A stretch of DNA of 64,000 nucleotides from Bacteroidales bacterium (GCA_017615595.1 JAFZZT010000014.1:228-64227); one strand, 5' to 3'. Positions 57,703-64,000 are shown, counted from the stretch's first letter. A program made the numbers and translations. The notes: generated from the letters alone by a model not told the origin.

Positions 57703-59043
57703 ATGCAATATCATATCACCCAAGGATTAGACCTGAAGATAGCGGGCGCCGCGTCAGATGTGATGCTCGAATTGCCACTGTCTGACCAATTCCGTGTGTC
57801 TCCCAGCGACTTCCGCTGGCTGAAGGCCAAGCTGTTGGTCCAGCCCGGCGACCGGGTGGAGATCGGCACCCCGCTCTTTTGCGACAAGCAAGACGAGCGC
57901 ATCGTGGTTGTCTCTCCCGTAACGGGCACCGTGAAGGAGGTCGTGCGTGGCGAGAAGCGCGTCATCGAGGCCATCACCATCGACCGTGATCTGGATGCGC
58001 CCATGTCTGCCACAGTGGATTTCGAGGAGCCCGCTGATGGCGACTCCGTCCGCCGACTGCTGTTGCAGCATGGCTTGTGGTCCTGTCTGCGCCAGCGGCC
58101 CTTTGCGGTAATCCCCCAGCCGGATGTCCTGCCCAAATCGGTCTTTGTCCCCTGCTTCGACAGCAATCCCCTCGCGCCCGACTACAACGTTTTGTTGCAC
58201 GGTCAGGAGGAGAACTTCCTATATGGGTTGAAGATGCTACAACGCGCTGCAGGCACCGCACCCACGCACCTGTGCATGCGTGAAGGTGCTGACAACCAGA
58301 TCTTTGAAAAAGCGAAAGCGGTAGAAAAACACTACTTCAGCGGTCCGCACCCCGCCGGCAACGTGGGCACGCACATCCATCTGGTGGACCCCATTGACAA
58401 GGGCGACACCGTCTGGTTCATCCATCCGCAGGAGGTGGCTCGTATTGGGCAGTTCTTTGCGAAGCGAGTGCTGCAATTTAAGAAGACGGCGGCCCTGACG
58501 GGTCCAGAAGTCAGCAACACCGGCTATTTTCGCACGGTGTATGGCGCGGACCTCTCGGCGCTGTTGGCGAACAATCTCCGACAGGAGAAGGTGCGCATCA
58601 TCAGCGGCAGCGTGTTGAGCGGACGTCAATGCCAGCAGCCGCCCGTGTTGGGTTTCTACGATCAGCAGATGACGGTCATTGCGGAAGGCGGAAAGCGTGA
58701 AATTCTCGGGTGGCTGTTGCCCGGGTTGAAGAAGTGGAGCTTGTCGCGCACCTTCCTCGCCTGGCTCACGCCCAAGCGCACCTACGGCGTGGACACGACG
58801 CTGCATGGCGGCCGCCGCGCCTTCATGATGACGGACGTCTATGACAAAGTCTTCCCCCTGGACCTCCTACCCTTGCAGCTGCTCAAAGCCTGCGAGATCA
58901 AAGACATAGAGCAGATGGAGTCCCTCGGCATCTACGAAGTGGACAGCGAGGACTTCGCCCTCTGCGAGCTCGTCTGCCCCTCCAAGAAGGAGTGCCAAAG
59001 GATCGTGGAGGAAGGGATGAAAGAGATAATAGATAATAGATAA
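57703..59043 (+). CDS. nqrA: Na(+)-translocating NADH:quinone reductase subunit A (stand-alone)
   Basis: GLDLKIAG, RGEKRV, RQRPF, GPHPAGNVG, ISGSVLSG and EDFALCELVCPSK. Confidence 0.9.
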   Translation: MQYHITQGLDLKIAGAASDVMLELPLSDQFRVSPSDFRWLKAKLLVQPGDRVEIGTPLFCDKQDERIVVVSPVTGTVKEVVRGEKRVIEAITIDRDLDAPMSATVDFEEPADGDSVRRLLLQHGLWSCLRQRPFAVIPQPDVLPKSVFVPCFDSNPLAPDYNVLLHGQEENFLYGLKMLQRAAGTAPTHLCMREGADNQIFEKAKAVEKHYFSGPHPAGNVGTHIHLVDPIDKGDTVWFIHPQEVARIGQFFAKRVLQFKKTAALTGPEVSNTGYFRTVYGADLSALLANNLRQEKVRIISGSVLSGRQCQQPPVLGFYDQQMTVIAEGGKREILGWLLPGLKKWSLSRTFLAWLTPKRTYGVDTTLHGGRRAFMMTDVYDKVFPLDLLPLQLLKACEIKDIEQMESLGIYEVDSEDFALCELVCPSKKECQRIVEEGMKEIIDNR

Positions 59044-59091
59044 TAGTTAATAGTTAAGAGTTAAGAATTAGAAGTTTGGAGTTTGGAGTTG
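59022..59091. repeat. Heptamer array, 10 units, overlapping the nqrA 3' end
   Basis: AGAGATA ATAGATA ATAGATA ATAGTTA ATAGTTA AGAGTTA AGAATTA GAAGTTT GGAGTTT GGAGTTG. Confidence 0.8.
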
Positions 59092-59161
59092 GTGGGAGGT
59101 GGAAGTATTTTGAGCTTTTTCATACCTTTGCAACTAATGTAGTATCTATTTGAAGGGGCTA

Positions 59162-59263
59162 TCAAAAAGGCAGATTTGTTTTAGCGTCACCGCGATGGTT
59201 TACGCCGGTGTAGGCCAAGAAAGAATCCTCGTAGCGGCGGAATTTCAAGATGGAGTCGTTCAT
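59162..59263 (-). pseudogene. Gene 3'-region remnant, copy 1 (MNDSILKFRRYEDSFLAYTGVNH...)
   Basis: Shares GGTTTACRCCGGTGTAGG (YTGVN) with copy 3. Confidence 0.6.
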
Positions 59264-59329
59264 TTTATAAAAAGGCAATTATTTTAATTTATTGACGAAA
59301 ATTAGTATATCTGTACTGAGAAAGTCATC

Positions 59330-59515
59330 TTGTCAGCGGCCAAAGCGTATTATTTTGTATCCCTGATTGAGAATGATGGCATCACAATCGAGAAATACAA
59401 CAGTCGGCAACTGGAGCGCATGAGAGATTGGTTGTTCACGGACTACGGATACACGAAACTCAACAAGCTAAAGAAGTCAAATCCAGAGGCGTTCTTCTAT
59501 TTGTATTTGGCATAA
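59330..59515 (+). pseudogene. Unassigned short ORF or C-terminal gene fragment followed by a hairpin
   Basis: 61-aa ORF with a TTG start; hairpin AAATCATGC...GCATGATTT at 59519-59542. Confidence 0.35.
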
Positions 59516-59590
59516 CATAAATCATGCTTGTAGGCATGATTTTTCAAGCAAGCCTTGGACAGTTTTTGTGACACTAATGTACAATAAACT

Positions 59591-59656
59591 TTAATCTACC
59601 AACGCCTCTATGGGCACGGTGCTGTCCATCAGGCCGATGCGGGTATCGGTGGCGTG
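59591..59656 (-). pseudogene. Gene 3'-end remnant, copy 2 (HATDTRIGLMDSTVPIEALVD*)
   Basis: 58/63 nt identical to copy 3; four of the five differences are synonymous. Confidence 0.7.
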
Positions 59657-59703
59657 GCAAACGCTCTTATGCAGAAATGCTCAGGAGAGAAAACTAATAA
59701 TTC

Positions 59704-59895
59704 TTATACCTCGGGATGATAGAACTTGTAGATCTTTTCAGTTAACCGACGACGAGACTCTTCGAGTGGAATACATTGTGCCATTTCTTCATCGGAGATT
59801 ATCCGATAAGCGGTTTCTGCAGCAACTCCATATTCTGTGGATGGTTCATTAACCATCGGAGTTTCAGGTTCTTCTATAGGATAATCTTTTGCCAT
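59704..59895 (-). CDS. Small acidic protein, antitoxin-like
   Basis: 63 aa with VNEPSTEYG and CIPLEESRRRL; own -7 box (CAAAGATA near 59916). Confidence 0.55.
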   Translation of the reverse strand: MAKDYPIEEPETPMVNEPSTEYGVAAETAYRIISDEEMAQCIPLEESRRRLTEKIYKFYHPEV

Positions 59896-59974
59896 ATAAT
59901 TGTTTTTTTACAAGGCAAAGATACATATTTTTTTAACACCTCGTCAGTTCCGCCCGATCCCTACTTCGCCCAAG

Positions 59975-60155
59975 CCCGTCAGGGCTTCCATCTCTGTAGC
60001 ACGAGGACGTTCCTGTCCGCGTCCCACAACCCCGTATGGGGTTGCACATTGGGCACGACAATGTTTCGGCACCCCGTTGGATATGAATCTCCTACGGAGA
60101 TTTGGCACCGCACACGGGCATCCGTTTTTTCTATAGAGATGTATCCCCTGACGGG
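59975..60155. mobile_element. REPIN/PATE-like non-autonomous palindromic element
   Basis: Symmetric ends CCCGTCAGGG-n5-ATCTCTGTAG and CTATAGAGAT-n5-CCCTGACGGG; inner hairpins at 60027-44 and 60086-102. Confidence 0.6.
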
Positions 60156-60161
60156 GATATG

Positions 60162-60257
60162 TCACCCATCCACCAACGCCTCAATCGGCACGGTGCTGTC
60201 CATCAGGCCGATGCGGGTGTCGGAGGCGTGGCGGTTTACACCGGTGTAGGACAGAGA
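60162..60257 (-). pseudogene. Gene 3'-end remnant, copy 3 (SLSYTGVNRHASDTRIGLMDSTVPIEALVDG*)
   Basis: Overlaps both copy 1 and copy 2 in sequence. Confidence 0.7.
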
Positions 60258-60329
60258 GGTGCGTGACAGCGATTTAGGATTGAGTATTCGGTGGAAGGAG
60301 AAGATGTGAAAGTTATTTATGATTCCTCG

Positions 60330-61337
60330 TTATCTTAAATCATTGTCCATACAATATTTTTCAACAACAGGAATAAAACTCTCATACCAATACCATGTTT
60401 TTGCAACTTTAACACCATACGTGTTGTCTCTTTTGGCATTATTAGATTTCCAACATTGTACAAAATGATGCATATTCATTTTGGCGAAACCATTATCTTT
60501 CATTATTCTCACAATGTCTCCAGGCAGCAGTTTCTTTTTTTCTCTTTCTTTAATTAGAACGTACTCCGTATTTATTTTATCTGCCTCCTTGCTTCCTTCT
60601 TTTATGAAAGTCACAACCCTATCAGCTTGTCCTTGATTATTTGCAATTTTAGGCACATAAAAAATACGGTAAGAGTAATTTGTACTTTTGTATATATCTT
60701 CATCAAGAGATTTGTCAAATTCATCTATAAACATTGCAATATTAGTTGGAATTCCTTTTAGGTCTTTAAGCATTTCTATCTGTGGTTCAGAAAGACTCGT
60801 GAATTGAATAGACATACTCAGTTGATTTGAAATGCTATATTTTTTACCAAATAATTTCGTTATTACTTGTTCATAGTTGATGCAACACGCCTGGAATTTT
60901 GCAGATACAGCATCATCAATTTTCGTGGTCATTTGATGCTCTATTTCATGCCGTAACCCAATTAAAAAACGAAGGTTTGCCTTTGTTGGATTATTAAAAG
61001 GACATTGGGTTTCATTTAAACAACGTTCAAGTTCCCATGCTTTTAATGCACCGTACTTAGTTTTATCAAACAATCTTTTTTTCCCAGATTGCTTGAAATA
61101 GTGATATTCTATTTTCTTTTCCCTGTAATATGCGTGGCAAAGGTATGTCCATGATATTATTGCAAGGACACAAAAAGATTCTGCTTTGAAAGTTATGGCT
61201 GGATTGTTGTACATCTGAACTGCGCACAACATTGATTCTCTTGATTTTTGCAGAAGTTCAAGCTTTATTGATCCTATTTTCTTCTTTGGCATGTTATTGT
61301 ACAGTCTAAAAACATTTATAATCTCGGATTGAATCAT
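60330..61337 (-). CDS. DUF3644 (HEPN-like) domain protein
   Basis: KSRESMLCAVQMYNNP...ESF...ISWTYLCHAYY and LRHEIEH (RxxxxH); TGATG overlap with AbiH; alternative start at 61292. Confidence 0.85.
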   Translation of the reverse strand: MIQSEIINVFRLYNNMPKKKIGSIKLELLQKSRESMLCAVQMYNNPAITFKAESFCVLAIISWTYLCHAYYREKKIEYHYFKQSGKKRLFDKTKYGALKAWELERCLNETQCPFNNPTKANLRFLIGLRHEIEHQMTTKIDDAVSAKFQACCINYEQVITKLFGKKYSISNQLSMSIQFTSLSEPQIEMLKDLKGIPTNIAMFIDEFDKSLDEDIYKSTNYSYRIFYVPKIANNQGQADRVVTFIKEGSKEADKINTEYVLIKEREKKKLLPGDIVRIMKDNGFAKMNMHHFVQCWKSNNAKRDNTYGVKVAKTWYWYESFIPVVEKYCMDNDLR

Positions 61338-62299
61338 CAAACACGAAATGCTTCAGTTTTTCTTACTTTCCAAAGGCTTAATGCTTCTTTTGTTTTGGAA
61401 ACAGCATCAGTAAGACTGCAATCAATTGGAACTATTTCATTTTTGTTGTCAATCTGGTATGGGTTTATACCACCGGTATAGGCACCTACGTTGTCCATTA
61501 CATCGCTTAAAGCTTTCTCTCCATAGCCGTATATTATAAAAAGTTTATTCTTCTTGCCTTCGAATAATTTACGAAAGTAAAAATCATCCGTTGATCCCAT
61601 TGAACACCCATAGATGATATATACGTCTTTCATGTTTATGTAATTCATCAAATCAGTAATATTAAAAATTTTTTGTCGAGATTTATACAAGAACGAGTGT
61701 GCCTTTTCCACCTTTTGAATGTCATCTATTCCAAGCACAATATAATCACTAGGATTGTCTGTCCCTTTTTCTGGATTATAGATTGAACCATGCTGAAATA
61801 TGATTTTTTCTTTGTTGAAAGATAAATTTGAATTGTATAGTTTTGCATCCGCCGAATAGGCAGCGACGATATGAGTATAATTGAATGAAACTATTTGATA
61901 ATCTAAACAGTTCCACTCTTGGGATATTTTCCCCACCCAATACCCTGGATTGCCAGATTTAGAAGTGCTTATCTCTTCTTTTAAATACAGGAATAAGGCA
62001 TTTTTCAACTCCTTAAACTCTGTTTTGAATTGTTCTGAAGATTGTTTGTTGCCAATTCCATCATTAGCTGTTATTTGTTTAGAATATTCATATAAACCAT
62101 ATTCCAAATCCATCCATAACTCACCATCAACATTGTCAATAATGTGTTTGCATAATCGATTGCCTTGTTGAGACAATCTTTTAAGTTCCTTGCTTTTTTC
62201 GTAAAAATTCTTATAACTTGTTTTGTAGCCATGAGCTATGTCAAAACCATTTCCTAAGAAAACCATTGCTTTAAATGTTTGTCTTGCAAGTTTATCCAT
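61337..62299 (-). CDS. AbiH-family abortive infection protein (SIR2-like fold)
   Basis: LGNGFDIAHGYKTSY, SFNYT, HGS, LGID and IYGCSMGSTD. Confidence 0.88.
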   Translation of the reverse strand: MDKLARQTFKAMVFLGNGFDIAHGYKTSYKNFYEKSKELKRLSQQGNRLCKHIIDNVDGELWMDLEYGLYEYSKQITANDGIGNKQSSEQFKTEFKELKNALFLYLKEEISTSKSGNPGYWVGKISQEWNCLDYQIVSFNYTHIVAAYSADAKLYNSNLSFNKEKIIFQHGSIYNPEKGTDNPSDYIVLGIDDIQKVEKAHSFLYKSRQKIFNITDLMNYINMKDVYIIYGCSMGSTDDFYFRKLFEGKKNKLFIIYGYGEKALSDVMDNVGAYTGGINPYQIDNKNEIVPIDCSLTDAVSKTKEALSLWKVRKTEAFRV

Positions 62300-62318
62300 C
62301 GTTTTTTTCTTTTTTTTG

Positions 62319-62326
62319 CAAAAATA
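62319..62326 (-). promoter_or_regulatory. -7 box for the AbiH-DUF3644 pair
   Basis: CAAAAATA about 20 nt upstream of the AbiH start. Confidence 0.55.
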
Positions 62327-62355
62327 CAAAAATCCTCAAAATAGAAAAAGATACA

Positions 62356-64000
62356 TCATTCACTCTTTTCAATTACCGCAATTTCCTCCTCCGTCAACCC
62401 ATACAACTCATACACCAACGCGTCAATTTCCCGCTCCAAAGTCGAAGTATCGGCATTAGGATTGGATTTCTTTGCGGAAAGGATTTGGTCAACCAATGCG
62501 ATAATGGGTTGTTGCTTGTCTTTGCTCGCTTTTAGTATAGGTAATTTCTTCGCTTGGGCTATTCGTATTTTCGGAAAGAGTTCTGTCTCACCTTTGAACA
62601 TTGTTGAATAATACCATTGAAGTAGAGAAGAGTTTAGCAATGCTAACACATACTTTGTACTCAATCGATCATCCGTGATTAGAATTGAATATAGGCTTCT
62701 ATTTGAATATATTGTTTCATTCCCAAGATATACCGCAATGAGAAAGCTACCTGCTTCCCGCAATAATATTCTTTCTTTGCTAAAAAATATCTTATCCTTA
62801 GAAAAAGCATCTAAAACAGTTTGGCTTATATATGACAGCTTTGTATAGTGATATTTGGAAACATCTGATCCTGTAAGAAATTTGTGTTGACCGTTGCGTC
62901 CAACCATATTTCGTCCAATTTCAAAGCCTCGCATAATTGAAGAAACAGATGAGAGTGGAACGGTTCCCGAAATAATATGTTCAATGATATTACCATCTGC
63001 ATAAAAATCCTCAAAACGCCAACTCGACTTGCATTTTTTTGCTATAAATGTTGCTGTCGGGATTTTTGCATTCTTGAAGACATTATCTCCTTCTATTCTG
63101 AATGCAATCACGGTAACATTTTCTTGCAAGAAATCGCGAAGTAAATGAAATTTCATGCCTTTGACAAAAAGAGATGAAGTGATAAATGATAGAATACCAT
63201 TTTTACTTAATAAGTTGACAGCCCGTTCATAAAAGAAAGCGTATAAATCCAAACATGATGCGGTTTTATATGTGCTGTATGTTCCGTCTGCACCGATAAC
63301 CACATACGGCGGGTTCCCGATCACAATGTCAAACCCACCCTTGTCGAAGATGTCCTTGAACCACGTGTGCCAGAGGAAGAACTCCTGGTTGGCGGAGGGG
63401 TCGAGGGCGGAGAGGCGGACTTCGGCGGAGGACGTGAGACCCTGCTGGGCGATGTACCGCTTCACGTTACCGTTGATAGTACTGCGGGCTGCCACCTTTT
63501 TGGCGTGGTCTGTGAGCGAGAAGTACTCCTGCAACAGCAAGCGCAGATTGTGCTTGGTTTCGTCAGAAGTGTATTCCATCGCCAACTGGTTCGCGCCTGC
63601 CTTGTTCTTCCCCTTGCCAAGACCGCTCATCATCCCCTCCTGATCCATCATCCGGCTTAAATCCACCCCTTCGAAGCTCTCTATCAGACTGTTGCCCTGC
63701 ATAAATTTGTAGTCGAAGTTGGGCAATGCCTCGGGTACTTCACTGTCAACCACGATGCTAAGCCAAAAACGCAGTCGGGCAATGTCAATGGCACCACGTT
63801 CGATGTCCACACCGTAGATGTTGTTCTCGATAATCTCCTTTTTCAATTGTGATCTGTGAACAGTGATCAGTGAACAGGAATCGGAAACCGCCAGAGCCTC
63901 CCTGCAACGCCACAGCTCGTTCAGCAGTCCCATCGGGAACGCGCCGGAACCGATGGCTGGGTCGCAGATCTTCACTTCGCGCAGAGCTTTGTAGAGTGTG
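62356..64000 (-). CDS. Type IIG (Eco57I/TaqI-like) restriction-modification N6-adenine methyltransferase, C-terminal part
   Basis: DPAIGSGAF, IYGVDI, ARLRFWL, GNSL, GFDIVIGNPPY, TaqI_C-like YVLALLNS and EIDALVYELYGLTEEEI; frame open to the window edge. Confidence 0.93.
   Translation of the reverse strand, partial: TLYKALREVKICDPAIGSGAFPMGLLNELWRCREALAVSDSCSLITVHRSQLKKEIIENNIYGVDIERGAIDIARLRFWLSIVVDSEVPEALPNFDYKFMQGNSLIESFEGVDLSRMMDQEGMMSGLGKGKNKAGANQLAMEYTSDETKHNLRLLLQEYFSLTDHAKKVAARSTINGNVKRYIAQQGLTSSAEVRLSALDPSANQEFFLWHTWFKDIFDKGGFDIVIGNPPYVVIGADGTYSTYKTASCLDLYAFFYERAVNLLSKNGILSFITSSLFVKGMKFHLLRDFLQENVTVIAFRIEGDNVFKNAKIPTATFIAKKCKSSWRFEDFYADGNIIEHIISGTVPLSSVSSIMRGFEIGRNMVGRNGQHKFLTGSDVSKYHYTKLSYISQTVLDAFSKDKIFFSKERILLREAGSFLIAVYLGNETIYSNRSLYSILITDDRLSTKYVLALLNSSLLQWYYSTMFKGETELFPKIRIAQAKKLPILKASKDKQQPIIALVDQILSAKKSNPNADTSTLEREIDALVYELYGLTEEEIAVIEKSE
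63847..63881. repeat. Heptamer array (TCACTGA family) inside the methyltransferase ORF
   Basis: TTGTGAT CTGTGAA CAGTGAT CAGTGAA CAGGAAT; encodes ..DSCSLITVHRSQ.. Confidence 0.75.

Follow-up and report, generated by a model that had tools for sequence, protein, structure and literature searches.

The window, the whole 64,000-nt stretch analysed here (Bacteroidales bacterium, GCA_017615595.1, JAFZZT010000014.1:228-64227), carries an array of short gene fragments between the conserved chromosomal gene nqrA and the head of a defence island. The array contains three copies (F1 to F3) of F, the 3' end of a restriction gene here called res, and a multi-hairpin element, E. Its features are given below, with profile positions referring to a DNA profile of the res 3' end:

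57703..59043, plus strand: nqrA, conserved chromosomal gene bounding the array, with orthologs in relatives
about 59021-59110: low-complexity heptamer tract after nqrA
59191..59265, minus strand: F1, a 'long-class' stub, profile positions 83-157, MNDSILKFRRYEDSFLAYTGVN; its right half is lost
59330..59560, plus strand: 3' end of an AbiEii toxin gene and a downstream hairpin; 61-aa ORF at 59330-59515
59591..59659, minus strand: F2, the shortest stub, profile positions 151-219, HATDTRIGLMDSTVPIEALVD and stop
59704..59945, minus strand: 63-aa gene preceded by a promoter-like region of its own; its ortholog in intact parent operons lies between methylase and res
59969..60159, minus strand: E, conserved multi-hairpin element in its short form, starting 6 nt after F3
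60166..60280, minus strand: F3, stub of the res 3' end, profile positions 97-218, protein-like part SLSYTGVNRHASDTRIGLMDSTVPIEALVDG and stop
60330-61340, minus strand: DUF3644/PDC-S19 gene of the island head (head, 60330..64000)
61337-62329, minus strand: AbiH-like gene of the island head
62356 to the window end, minus strand: type IIG Eco57I/TaqI_C enzyme of the island head, its 5' part beyond the contig

Read along the minus strand, the order is type IIG head, AbiH-like gene, DUF3644/PDC-S19 gene, F3, E, 63-aa gene, F2, AbiEii stub (antisense) and F1. The protein-like part of F3 is preceded by a diverged leader that starts about 30 nt past the DUF3644 stop, and E contains a 25-nt long-range inverted repeat (59975-59999 / 60131-60155). 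A pattern scan for intrinsic terminators, which assumes a T-run, returned none in 58900-60500.

All three copies lie on the minus strand and tile onto one protein end, as a preliminary description of this DNA had claimed and as repeat comparison, tblastn and the DNA profile bear out. Copies 2 and 3 form a direct repeat of 65 nt (59594-59658 / 60168-60232) at 92% identity, with 60 of 65 positions shared and 5 mismatches, while copies 1 and 3 agree at 19 of 21 nt (59197-59217 / 60233-60253). When the C-terminal 70 aa of an intact relative served as tblastn query, copy 1 was found at 59266-59171 (residues 22-54, E 1e-9), copy 2 at 59656-59597 (residues 46-65, E 4e-8) and copy 3 at 60287-60171 (residues 27-65, E 2e-14); the DNA profile of the parent 3' end placed them at 59191-59265, 59591-59659 and 60166-60280. 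Codon by codon, four of the five differences between copies 2 and 3 are synonymous third positions (GAC/GAT, CCG/CCC, ATT/ATA and GTG/GTA), the remaining one changes S to T, and the GGC/GGT mismatch between copies 1 and 3 is synonymous, again matching that description. No further DNA copies were found in the same genome (2.11 Mb, 53 contigs, 92% complete): two places in the window matched at E < 1e-20 and all else at E > 0.5, so the gene-end repeat is not dispersed there.

The parent of all three copies is the C-terminus of a ResIII-type restriction subunit of about 840-850 aa that is intact in congeners. A 32-aa peptide from copy 3 gave tblastn matches in 38 of 101 related genomes, its own included; 36 of 54 congeners matched, one weak match fell in another family, and the other 45 genera sampled had none. 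Several matches lie at the very end of open frames of 841-871 aa, and the called parent genes, 838-852 aa long, end in ...QMNDAILKFRRYEDASLAYTGVNRHASDTRIGLMDSTVPIEALV followed by a variable tail. The res product matches Pfam ResIII (PF04851, E 2e-5, 25 bits, just above the cut-off of 22.5), with no NCBIfam name found for it, and its neighbour is an Eco57I-family methylase (PF07669, E 1.7e-30, 106.8 bits). Because PADLOC sets both genes on one type IIG profile (PDLC03626, positions 480-801 and 865-1357), the parent is read as a split type IIG-like restriction-modification (R-M) system, and the operon does pair a ResIII helicase/nuclease subunit with an Eco57I-family gamma-class methylase. The tBLASTn search that the preliminary description had asked for thus leads to a true protein C-terminus, and its suggestion of a helicase/restriction subunit partnering Eco57I-like methyltransferases was right.

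Intact parent operons run in the order ~260-aa gene, methylase, 63-aa gene, 104-aa gene and res, and their left homology boundary is their own promoter box. In one congener (G007) the res-methylase pair is intact, and its nqrA neighbourhood is that of the window. An exact scan for the core pattern over one genome per bacterial and archaeal species returned 44 stretches only, all from metagenome-assembled genomes (MAGs) of uncultured ruminant-gut Bacteroidales, which is what the genus consists of. Diversity at codon positions 1/2/3 is 0.091/0.007/0.227 in 13 intact genes, indicating purifying selection, and 0.162/0.135/0.184 in 53 stubs, indicating no protein-level constraint. The earlier view of the fragments as ends of functional alleles therefore holds for the window copies, which look recently functional because their differences are mostly synonymous, but not genus-wide, where the stubs have lost that constraint. 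A polymorphic-toxin orphan module was rejected as the source because the conserved part, instead of being a pre-toxin region, is the very C-terminal end of a helicase-type restriction subunit. A diversity-generating retroelement was rejected as well: a scan of the ORF families gave no reverse transcriptase, and on inspection the copy differences are not adenine-specific.

The sequences between the copies had been taken for unrelated payloads, a view that does not survive comparison with relatives. The 63-aa gene belongs to the parent operon, of which it is the middle gene; it is about four-fifths identical (counted by eye) to the gene between methylase and res of an intact operon, and its neighbour there, the 104-aa gene, is precisely deleted in the window. 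At F2, sequence that in intact operons lies ahead of the res start codon is fused straight to the last 66 nt of res, so the res body has been deleted, and copy 2 with the 63-aa gene is an internally deleted parent operon; in other genomes this deletion has a different joint. The plus-strand fragment, also described as unrelated, consists of the final 186 nt of an AbiEii toxin gene and is what remains of a DUF6577+AbiEii cassette in antisense orientation to F. In relatives (L030, L031, L044 and L053; L and G are our labels for loci and genomes) this cassette lies between two copies of a 138-nt stretch from the res end, and F1 shares its ATGAAYGA starting point with the copies found behind AbiE cassettes there. 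The palindromic element, E, is a conserved companion of the gene end and not cargo. The window array is the decayed product of at least three joint events: F3-E, the internally deleted parent operon (63-aa gene and F2), and an almost wholly deleted AbiE cassette with the truncated F1. Most of the cargo has since been deleted.

Taken across the genus, such arrays are real and widespread, and the window is a decayed example. A DNA profile built from the last 225 nt of five parents was scanned over 28 loci of relatives and the window, and returned 68 F copies. The window and 25 of the 28 loci (20 genomes) hold two to four copies each, co-oriented within every locus; the other three (L029, L032 and L033) hold an intact parent gene only, with no copies downstream. 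F spans the last 65-140 nt of res and occurs in 36 of 54 sampled congener species. Right ends fall at profile positions 210-224 in 62 of the 68 copies and left ends are spread from 2 to 168; as the profile stops at the gene end itself, the common end point rests partly on direct inspection, which shows six or more unrelated sequences taking over within a few nt of ...GCGCTGGTG, still inside the final res codons.

The interval between nqrA and the R-M genes, whose comparison among relatives the preliminary description had recommended, is highly variable, and 25 loci have variable cargo bounded by this gene end. None of the three outcomes named there as refutations came up. Cargo between F copies comprises DUF6577+AbiEii, a 23S-IVP/Zn-ribbon protein, AAA_14/DUF4143 ATPases, DUF4062 with a Schlafen/AlbA_2 protein, HicAB, DUF4160, RhuM, ORF6N and a ~340-aa gene, H. 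Cassettes start at their own promoter box, and each cargo type has its own fixed joint to the downstream F, recurring in several genomes. The arrays are headed by the parent operon or by type IIG enzymes of ~1000 aa with small genes, and they occupy at least eight chromosomal sites, with nqrA, nqrD, pyrG, an M20 peptidase, Maf, a class I tRNA synthetase, a PBP and malic enzyme among the neighbours.

Element E stands behind 29 of the 68 F copies, within 3-11 nt in 25 of those 29. It is a conserved multi-hairpin sequence of 190-240 nt with CCCC-loop-GGGG hairpins and inverted CTACAG motifs, present either in one piece or with cargo separating its left and right parts, and it also forms cargo-less F-E-F-E tandems (L031, L042, L043, L045 and L046). 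In the genome of the window it is single-copy, which rules out a genome-wide repeat or MITE. A known RNA or tRNA identity for F or E was rejected too: Rfam covariance models gave no match in window positions 58000-62000 at E up to 1, and in L031, L045 and L035 a sole, unrelated match (E 0.51), and no tRNA or tmRNA was found at F/E. The consensus structure of 18 E copies shows compensatory change in 5 of 48 pairs only (covariation term 0.06), the sequences being too conserved for covariation.

These comparisons identify F as a recombination joint, whose flanks reassort around a common end point and which has lost its coding constraint. Among 81 unique F copies, one left-flank type pairs with several right-flank types: the leader left flank is found with E (12), AAA (3), hp2 (4) and AbiE (1), and the parent left flank with AbiE (3), E (1), TGATTAG (2), CGTGAGG (1), hp2 (1) and others (5). 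Cassette order is likewise not fixed, G028 having AbiE followed by the 63/104-aa unit and the window the reverse. In L036 and L042, the F copies lying upstream of AAA_14 cargo have rare variants in common only over the right ~30 nt, and AbiE-linked copies agree in this way only over the last few nt. The F core forms an imperfect palindrome: 83.5% of cells are paired, versus 27-52% for slid partners. Covariation gives no support to compensatory maintenance of this hairpin, being no better than in shuffles (the observed values are reached in 205 and 249 of 500). In the stub core (columns 12-60) pi is 0.08-0.16 versus 0.47-0.6 in the flanks, in a sample from which diverged copies would have escaped; the conservation may reflect a DNA-level function, gene conversion or mere non-detection of such copies.

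All loci are metagenome-assembled contigs, and some flank combinations seen at single loci could be assembly chimeras or repeat-driven misjoins. A general artefact is argued against because the same units recur in MAGs from many records. For the window, independent Logan contigs carry nqrA, F1, the AbiE stub and F2 on one 2562-nt record with 0 differences, and also cover F3-DUF3644; the Logan pieces break inside F2/F3/E, and the evidence for those two joints is the MAG assembly together with recurrence of the arrangement in other MAGs. The depth of F and E exceeds that of the flanks 50- to 100-fold in three metagenomes containing the window, and contigs break at F and E. We give no evidential weight to window stretches that lack bridging metagenome contigs. 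A look for RNA runs containing this DNA found none. The same runs contain contigs that run from F into intact res (loose end at 60250). Apparent 'skips' and 'goes back' between F copies were rejected as excision products and are best read as intact F-bearing contigs of other strains aligned piecewise.

Mechanistically, we propose that the last 65-140 nt of res, often with E behind, would serve in this genus as a portable recombination joint, with self-promoted defence and toxin-antitoxin cassettes each ending in an F copy. Exchange inside F would add, remove and reshuffle cassettes downstream of R-M head genes, and co-oriented F copies would stay behind between cargo units. RecA-type recombination between copies of F (and E) could act through Campbell-type re-insertion of excised cargo+F circles and through unequal exchange with incoming DNA, and illegitimate recombination would have to account for the initial fusion of each cargo type to F. 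We give an even chance to cassette accretion and shuffling by recombination within F, taking RecA-type homologous recombination as the most likely process and RecA as the enzyme we infer.

Homologous recombination is favoured because crossover points inside F vary and no recombinase is linked to the arrays. No integrase or transposase domain was detected in any of the 149 ORFs that lie within 6 kb of an array (0 of 149 with PF00589), the only related match being an IstB-like helper-ATPase fragment present as cargo, and the PF00589 genes of five genomes, one of them in the genome of the window, all lie on contigs other than those of the arrays. The absence of an integrase noted in the preliminary description thus extends beyond the window. 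Homologous recombination alone, on the other hand, does not create the first gene-end duplication, and a search for a matched pair of empty and occupied sites in one chromosomal context found none, the intact parents of L029, L032 and L033 sitting in other neighbourhoods. Nor does it explain why six unrelated sequences start within a few nt of the hairpin foot, inside the last res codons. A fixed start near the hairpin foot is the pattern that a site-specific or hairpin-directed enzyme would give, and since this common end point is left unexplained, hairpin-directed enzymes stay in play.

The first alternative, which we regard as unlikely, is hairpin-directed single-strand transposition, with the hairpins of F (perhaps also of E) acting as REP-like ends for a RayT/IS200-type HUH-Y1 enzyme encoded by cargo H. 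Cargo between co-oriented F hairpins would be peeled out as a circle and pasted beside another F, and the arrays without an enzyme would be the counterpart of integrase-less attC clusters. The ~340-aa H protein has the motifs VMPDHHHIVLQV and YVYAN, with H152-H154, Y213 and N217 invariant in 18 homologs; its NCBIfam RAYT match is weak (E 1.4e-4, below cut-off), and JGI calls homologs RayT. In its AF2 model (pLDDT 86.6) the predicted N-terminal domain resembles, by Foldseek, ISDra2, IS608 and IS200 TnpA and E. coli RAYT (E 2e-6 to 4e-5, TM on target 0.57-0.70), and the C-terminal part is predicted to resemble DprA and ShosA. PDB sequence searches with H, single or profile, returned no Y1 enzymes; the link consists of motifs and fold.

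The genomic setting of H points both ways. Five orthologs (at least 73% identity) occur in the 54 congeners, against 36 of 54 with F; three of the five are F-flanked on both sides within one contig and a fourth has F on its assembled side, matching an F at the end of another contig, but the fifth has no F flank. The H cassette occurs in three different array contexts, and H paralogs at 36% identity have flanking hairpins of their own, in REPtron style. The palindromic shape of F, the co-orientation of its copies, as in IS200/IS605 ends, and the position of the junctions at the hairpin foot also favour such an enzyme. Against it, the H family profile finds nothing in the genome of the window, in G029 (99% complete, with a three-copy array), in G009 or in G039, the F hairpin has no more covariation than shuffled sequences, crossover points inside F vary, and H may be merely one more cargo. 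In the fuller form of this idea, which seems to us slightly less probable, F and E would be the ends and targets of a hairpin-directed single-strand cassette system run by a RayT-like HUH-Y1/DprA-like enzyme, the foldable res 3' end having been captured as its site and most arrays, that of the window included, being enzyme-less relics. If this were true, it would amount to an integron-like defence-gene platform built on peel-and-paste transposition in place of a tyrosine recombinase.

We doubt, a little more strongly again, that decay alone produced the arrays, by successive unrelated illegitimate insertions of R-M operons and defence genes at hotspots, with F stubs as deletion leftovers of res genes and the common end point as the outcome of selection for whole transcription units, from promoter to terminal hairpin. 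Several observations fit it: the 63/104-aa unit is an R-M operon minus methylase and res that retains 45 nt of the methylase as a stub, the left boundary of this unit varies (query positions 257, 439, 463, 466, 486 and 492), two different res-deletion joints exist, terminal F copies are ragged, stubs lack coding constraint and the left boundary of the parent operon is its own promoter box. It leaves unexplained, however, the fixed F joints to cargo that was never R-M (IVP/Zn-ribbon, AAA_14, the Schlafen pair and H), the long direct duplication around AbiE, the empty F-E-F-E tandems and the occurrence of one cargo+F unit in differing orders and neighbourhoods. Site-specific recombination at an F/E site by an unlinked recombinase (for example housekeeping Xer, as in IMEX or Acinetobacter pdif modules) is very improbable, for although F has a fixed end point, E is made of repeated hairpin motifs in inverted orientation and at least one tyrosine recombinase of ~300 aa is encoded elsewhere in each genome examined, a dif-like site was not found, crossovers inside F vary and nothing ties any recombinase to the arrays.

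Defence islands turn over fast, and to our knowledge few of the routes by which their genes enter and leave have been worked out, apart from integrons and integrase-borne islands. In the arrays described here, the recurring cassette joint is a short foldable piece of a restriction-gene end, seen in 36 of the 54 species sampled from a single rumen genus, and no integrase is linked to it. F is thus a concrete, testable recombination substrate, and H a candidate single-strand enzyme, in a lineage that has no genetics yet. For annotation, F stubs and the antisense or read-through ORFs that result from them should not be gene calls.

Keyword searches of the literature turned up no description of defence cassette arrays punctuated by a gene end in this way. 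Insertion with long target duplication was reportedly described in earlier work on H. pylori. It is the closest described process, and in the account of R-M loci by Furuta, Abe and Kobayashi (2010, PMC2853133) direct repeats > 30 bp flank the insert and no mobility gene is present. The AbiE cassette, flanked by its res-end duplication and free of mobility genes, is alike; as far as that account goes, the differences are that here the end of an R-M gene is both target and repeat and not cargo, that one target is reused, giving arrays, and that the repeat is a palindrome with a companion element (PMC2853133). Direct repeats of this length without mobility genes are seen in the 138-nt AbiE flanks, and the window keeps remnants of 65 nt and 21 nt.

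Integron attC sites have the crossover core consensus GTTRRRY. Integron cassette arrays and rAID-1 clusters (10.1101/471110) are closest in outcome. Integrons and integrase-less attC clusters, as portrayed in a report that includes chromosomal integrons with defence cassettes (bioRxiv 10.1101/2024.07.02.601686), likewise form co-oriented arrays of small cassettes that each end in a foldable imperfect palindrome, with shuffled order and cargo rich in defence and toxin-antitoxin genes. Unlike the integrons of that portrayal, F arrays have no IntI, attI or GTTRRRY core, their cassettes have their own promoters, and the F repeat derives from the end of a protein-coding gene (10.1101/2024.07.02.601686). 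No IntI-type tyrosine recombinase was present among the ORFs beside the arrays, and inspection showed neither an attC-like core nor promoterless cassettes, the joint being ...GCGYTGGTG followed by variable sequence. The preliminary description had pictured incoming DNA recombining at the 3' end of an R-M gene in an integron-like accretion; the outcome stands, as variable cargo in F-bounded arrays, but the features that define an integron are absent, and the arrays are integron-like in outcome without being an integron.

The rAID-1 clusters are Bacteroidales arrays of immunity genes with a conserved XerD-family recombinase (Ross et al. 2019, bioRxiv 10.1101/471110). They resemble F arrays in host order, in repetitive intergenic sequences and in signs of active acquisition, and differ, by the description given there, in that F arrays have no linked recombinase and carry anti-phage or TA-like cargo versus immunity genes (10.1101/471110). 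No XerD-family recombinase heading an immunity-gene array was found here, the cargo being AbiE, AAA_14/DUF4143, Schlafen/AlbA_2, HicAB and RhuM.

For the candidate enzyme H, the closest systems are REPtrons, in which a Y1 HUH enzyme gene is flanked by cognate hairpins and of which non-autonomous hairpin-flanked units exist (Quentin et al. 2018, PMC6006769). As there and in IS200/IS605, a putative Y1 HUH gene lies between co-oriented hairpins in some arrays, with a predicted fold that matches PDB 2xm3, 2vjv and 4er8; against the systems set out in that paper, the candidate is present in few arrays, is absent from the genome of the window and has a DprA-like domain, its 'REP' lies inside a coding gene end, and H is known from sequence and predicted fold (PMC6006769). 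The F-flanked gene with its HUH and Tyr motifs is found in 3-4 congener arrays, no member of its family being found in the four genomes named above.

Tycheposons, whose integrases act at tRNA genes, are tandem integrative elements that leave arrays of partial tRNA repeats, and the minimal mobile elements of Neisseria exchange cassettes between homologous flanks in core genes. The arrays described here are like the former in that repeated stubs of an integration target separate the cargo, and like the latter in the exchange of cassettes between conserved flanks; they differ from both in that the repeat is the end of a defence gene that travels with the cassettes.

The island adjoins nqrA, and the operon to which this gene belongs is in two parts in the genome that holds the window: nqrA lies alone by the island while the remainder is on another contig, where a gene for a 688-aa translation-GTPase-like protein sits between nqrB-nqrC and nqrD-E-F. 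Islands in congeners adjoin either nqrA or nqrD, and the nqr operon is therefore a recurrent insertion site.

Window 57703-59043: nqrA, adjoining the island
Own genome, contig C39:25580-31948: nqrB-nqrC, 688-aa gene, nqrD-E-F
Window about 59021-59110: low-complexity tract of 7-nt units, 3' of the nqrA stop

The units of this tract are AATAGAT, AGTTAAG and GGAGTTT, and in metagenomes containing the window its depth is 10-40x that of its flanks.

At the island head, a type IIG enzyme lies upstream of two translationally coupled proteins, DUF3644 (which matches the PADLOC candidate system PDC-S19, E 1e-147) and an AbiH-like protein. Four small, unrelated genes take their position in two related genomes, G002 and G008. 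The ~117 nt of promoter and leader with which the parent restriction operon begins also stand at the head of type IIG operons; cassette starts, like cassette ends, are therefore reused modules.

Window 60330-62329 (-): DUF3644 gene and AbiH-like gene
L034:354-476, L079:194-312, L092:598-717 (loci from related genomes): ~117-nt promoter and leader

Within the parent operon, the 63-aa and 104-aa genes separate the methylase from res, the stop of one overlapping the start of the other. They persist as a unit after res deletion; the window retains only the 63-aa gene. Neither matched Pfam, NCBIfam or PADLOC, and the two may form a toxin-antitoxin system or serve as a controller.

Window 59704-59895 (-): 63-aa gene
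L036:8628-8942 (+), L031:8475-9129: 63-aa/104-aa region in relatives

Element E, a conserved 190-240-nt group of CCCC-loop-GGGG hairpins without a match in Rfam, adjoins F (the copied res 3' end) in every case. It carries a hairpin+CTACAG motif once forward and twice inverted, together with a T-loop-like GGTTCAAATCC stretch, and looks like a BIME-type REP cluster.

Window 59969-60159 (-): E
L031:5305-5541, L031:5663-5897: E, two copies
L035:5794-6031: E

The ~340-aa cargo protein fuses an IS200/RAYT-like HUH-Y1 domain to a DprA/ShosA-like domain. Its only source name is 'RayT' (JGI), and 1952 relatives were found at E <= 0.001 among 4516 candidates from the protein collection.

L034:7993-9042 (-), L043:8557-9606 (-), L041:6945-8087 (+), L098:4658-5722 (-): ~340-aa HUH-Y1/DprA-like protein
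L100:2951-3952, L101:2653-3654, L102:2783-3784, L103:2737-3738, L104:2668-3690, L105:2643-3821: paralogs

These six paralogs, 31-36% identical to the ~340-aa protein, are each bordered by hairpins of their own. In L100-L104, inverted copies of a GCGACG...CGTCGC hairpin stand on either side of the gene, and in L105 the gene has another hairpin, with three copies upstream of it and one downstream; AGTTAGG tracts, similar to the heptamer tract after nqrA, lie upstream of the paralogs in L100-L103. In these rumen Bacteroidales, the arrangement of a paralog between its own hairpins resembles that of a REPtron.
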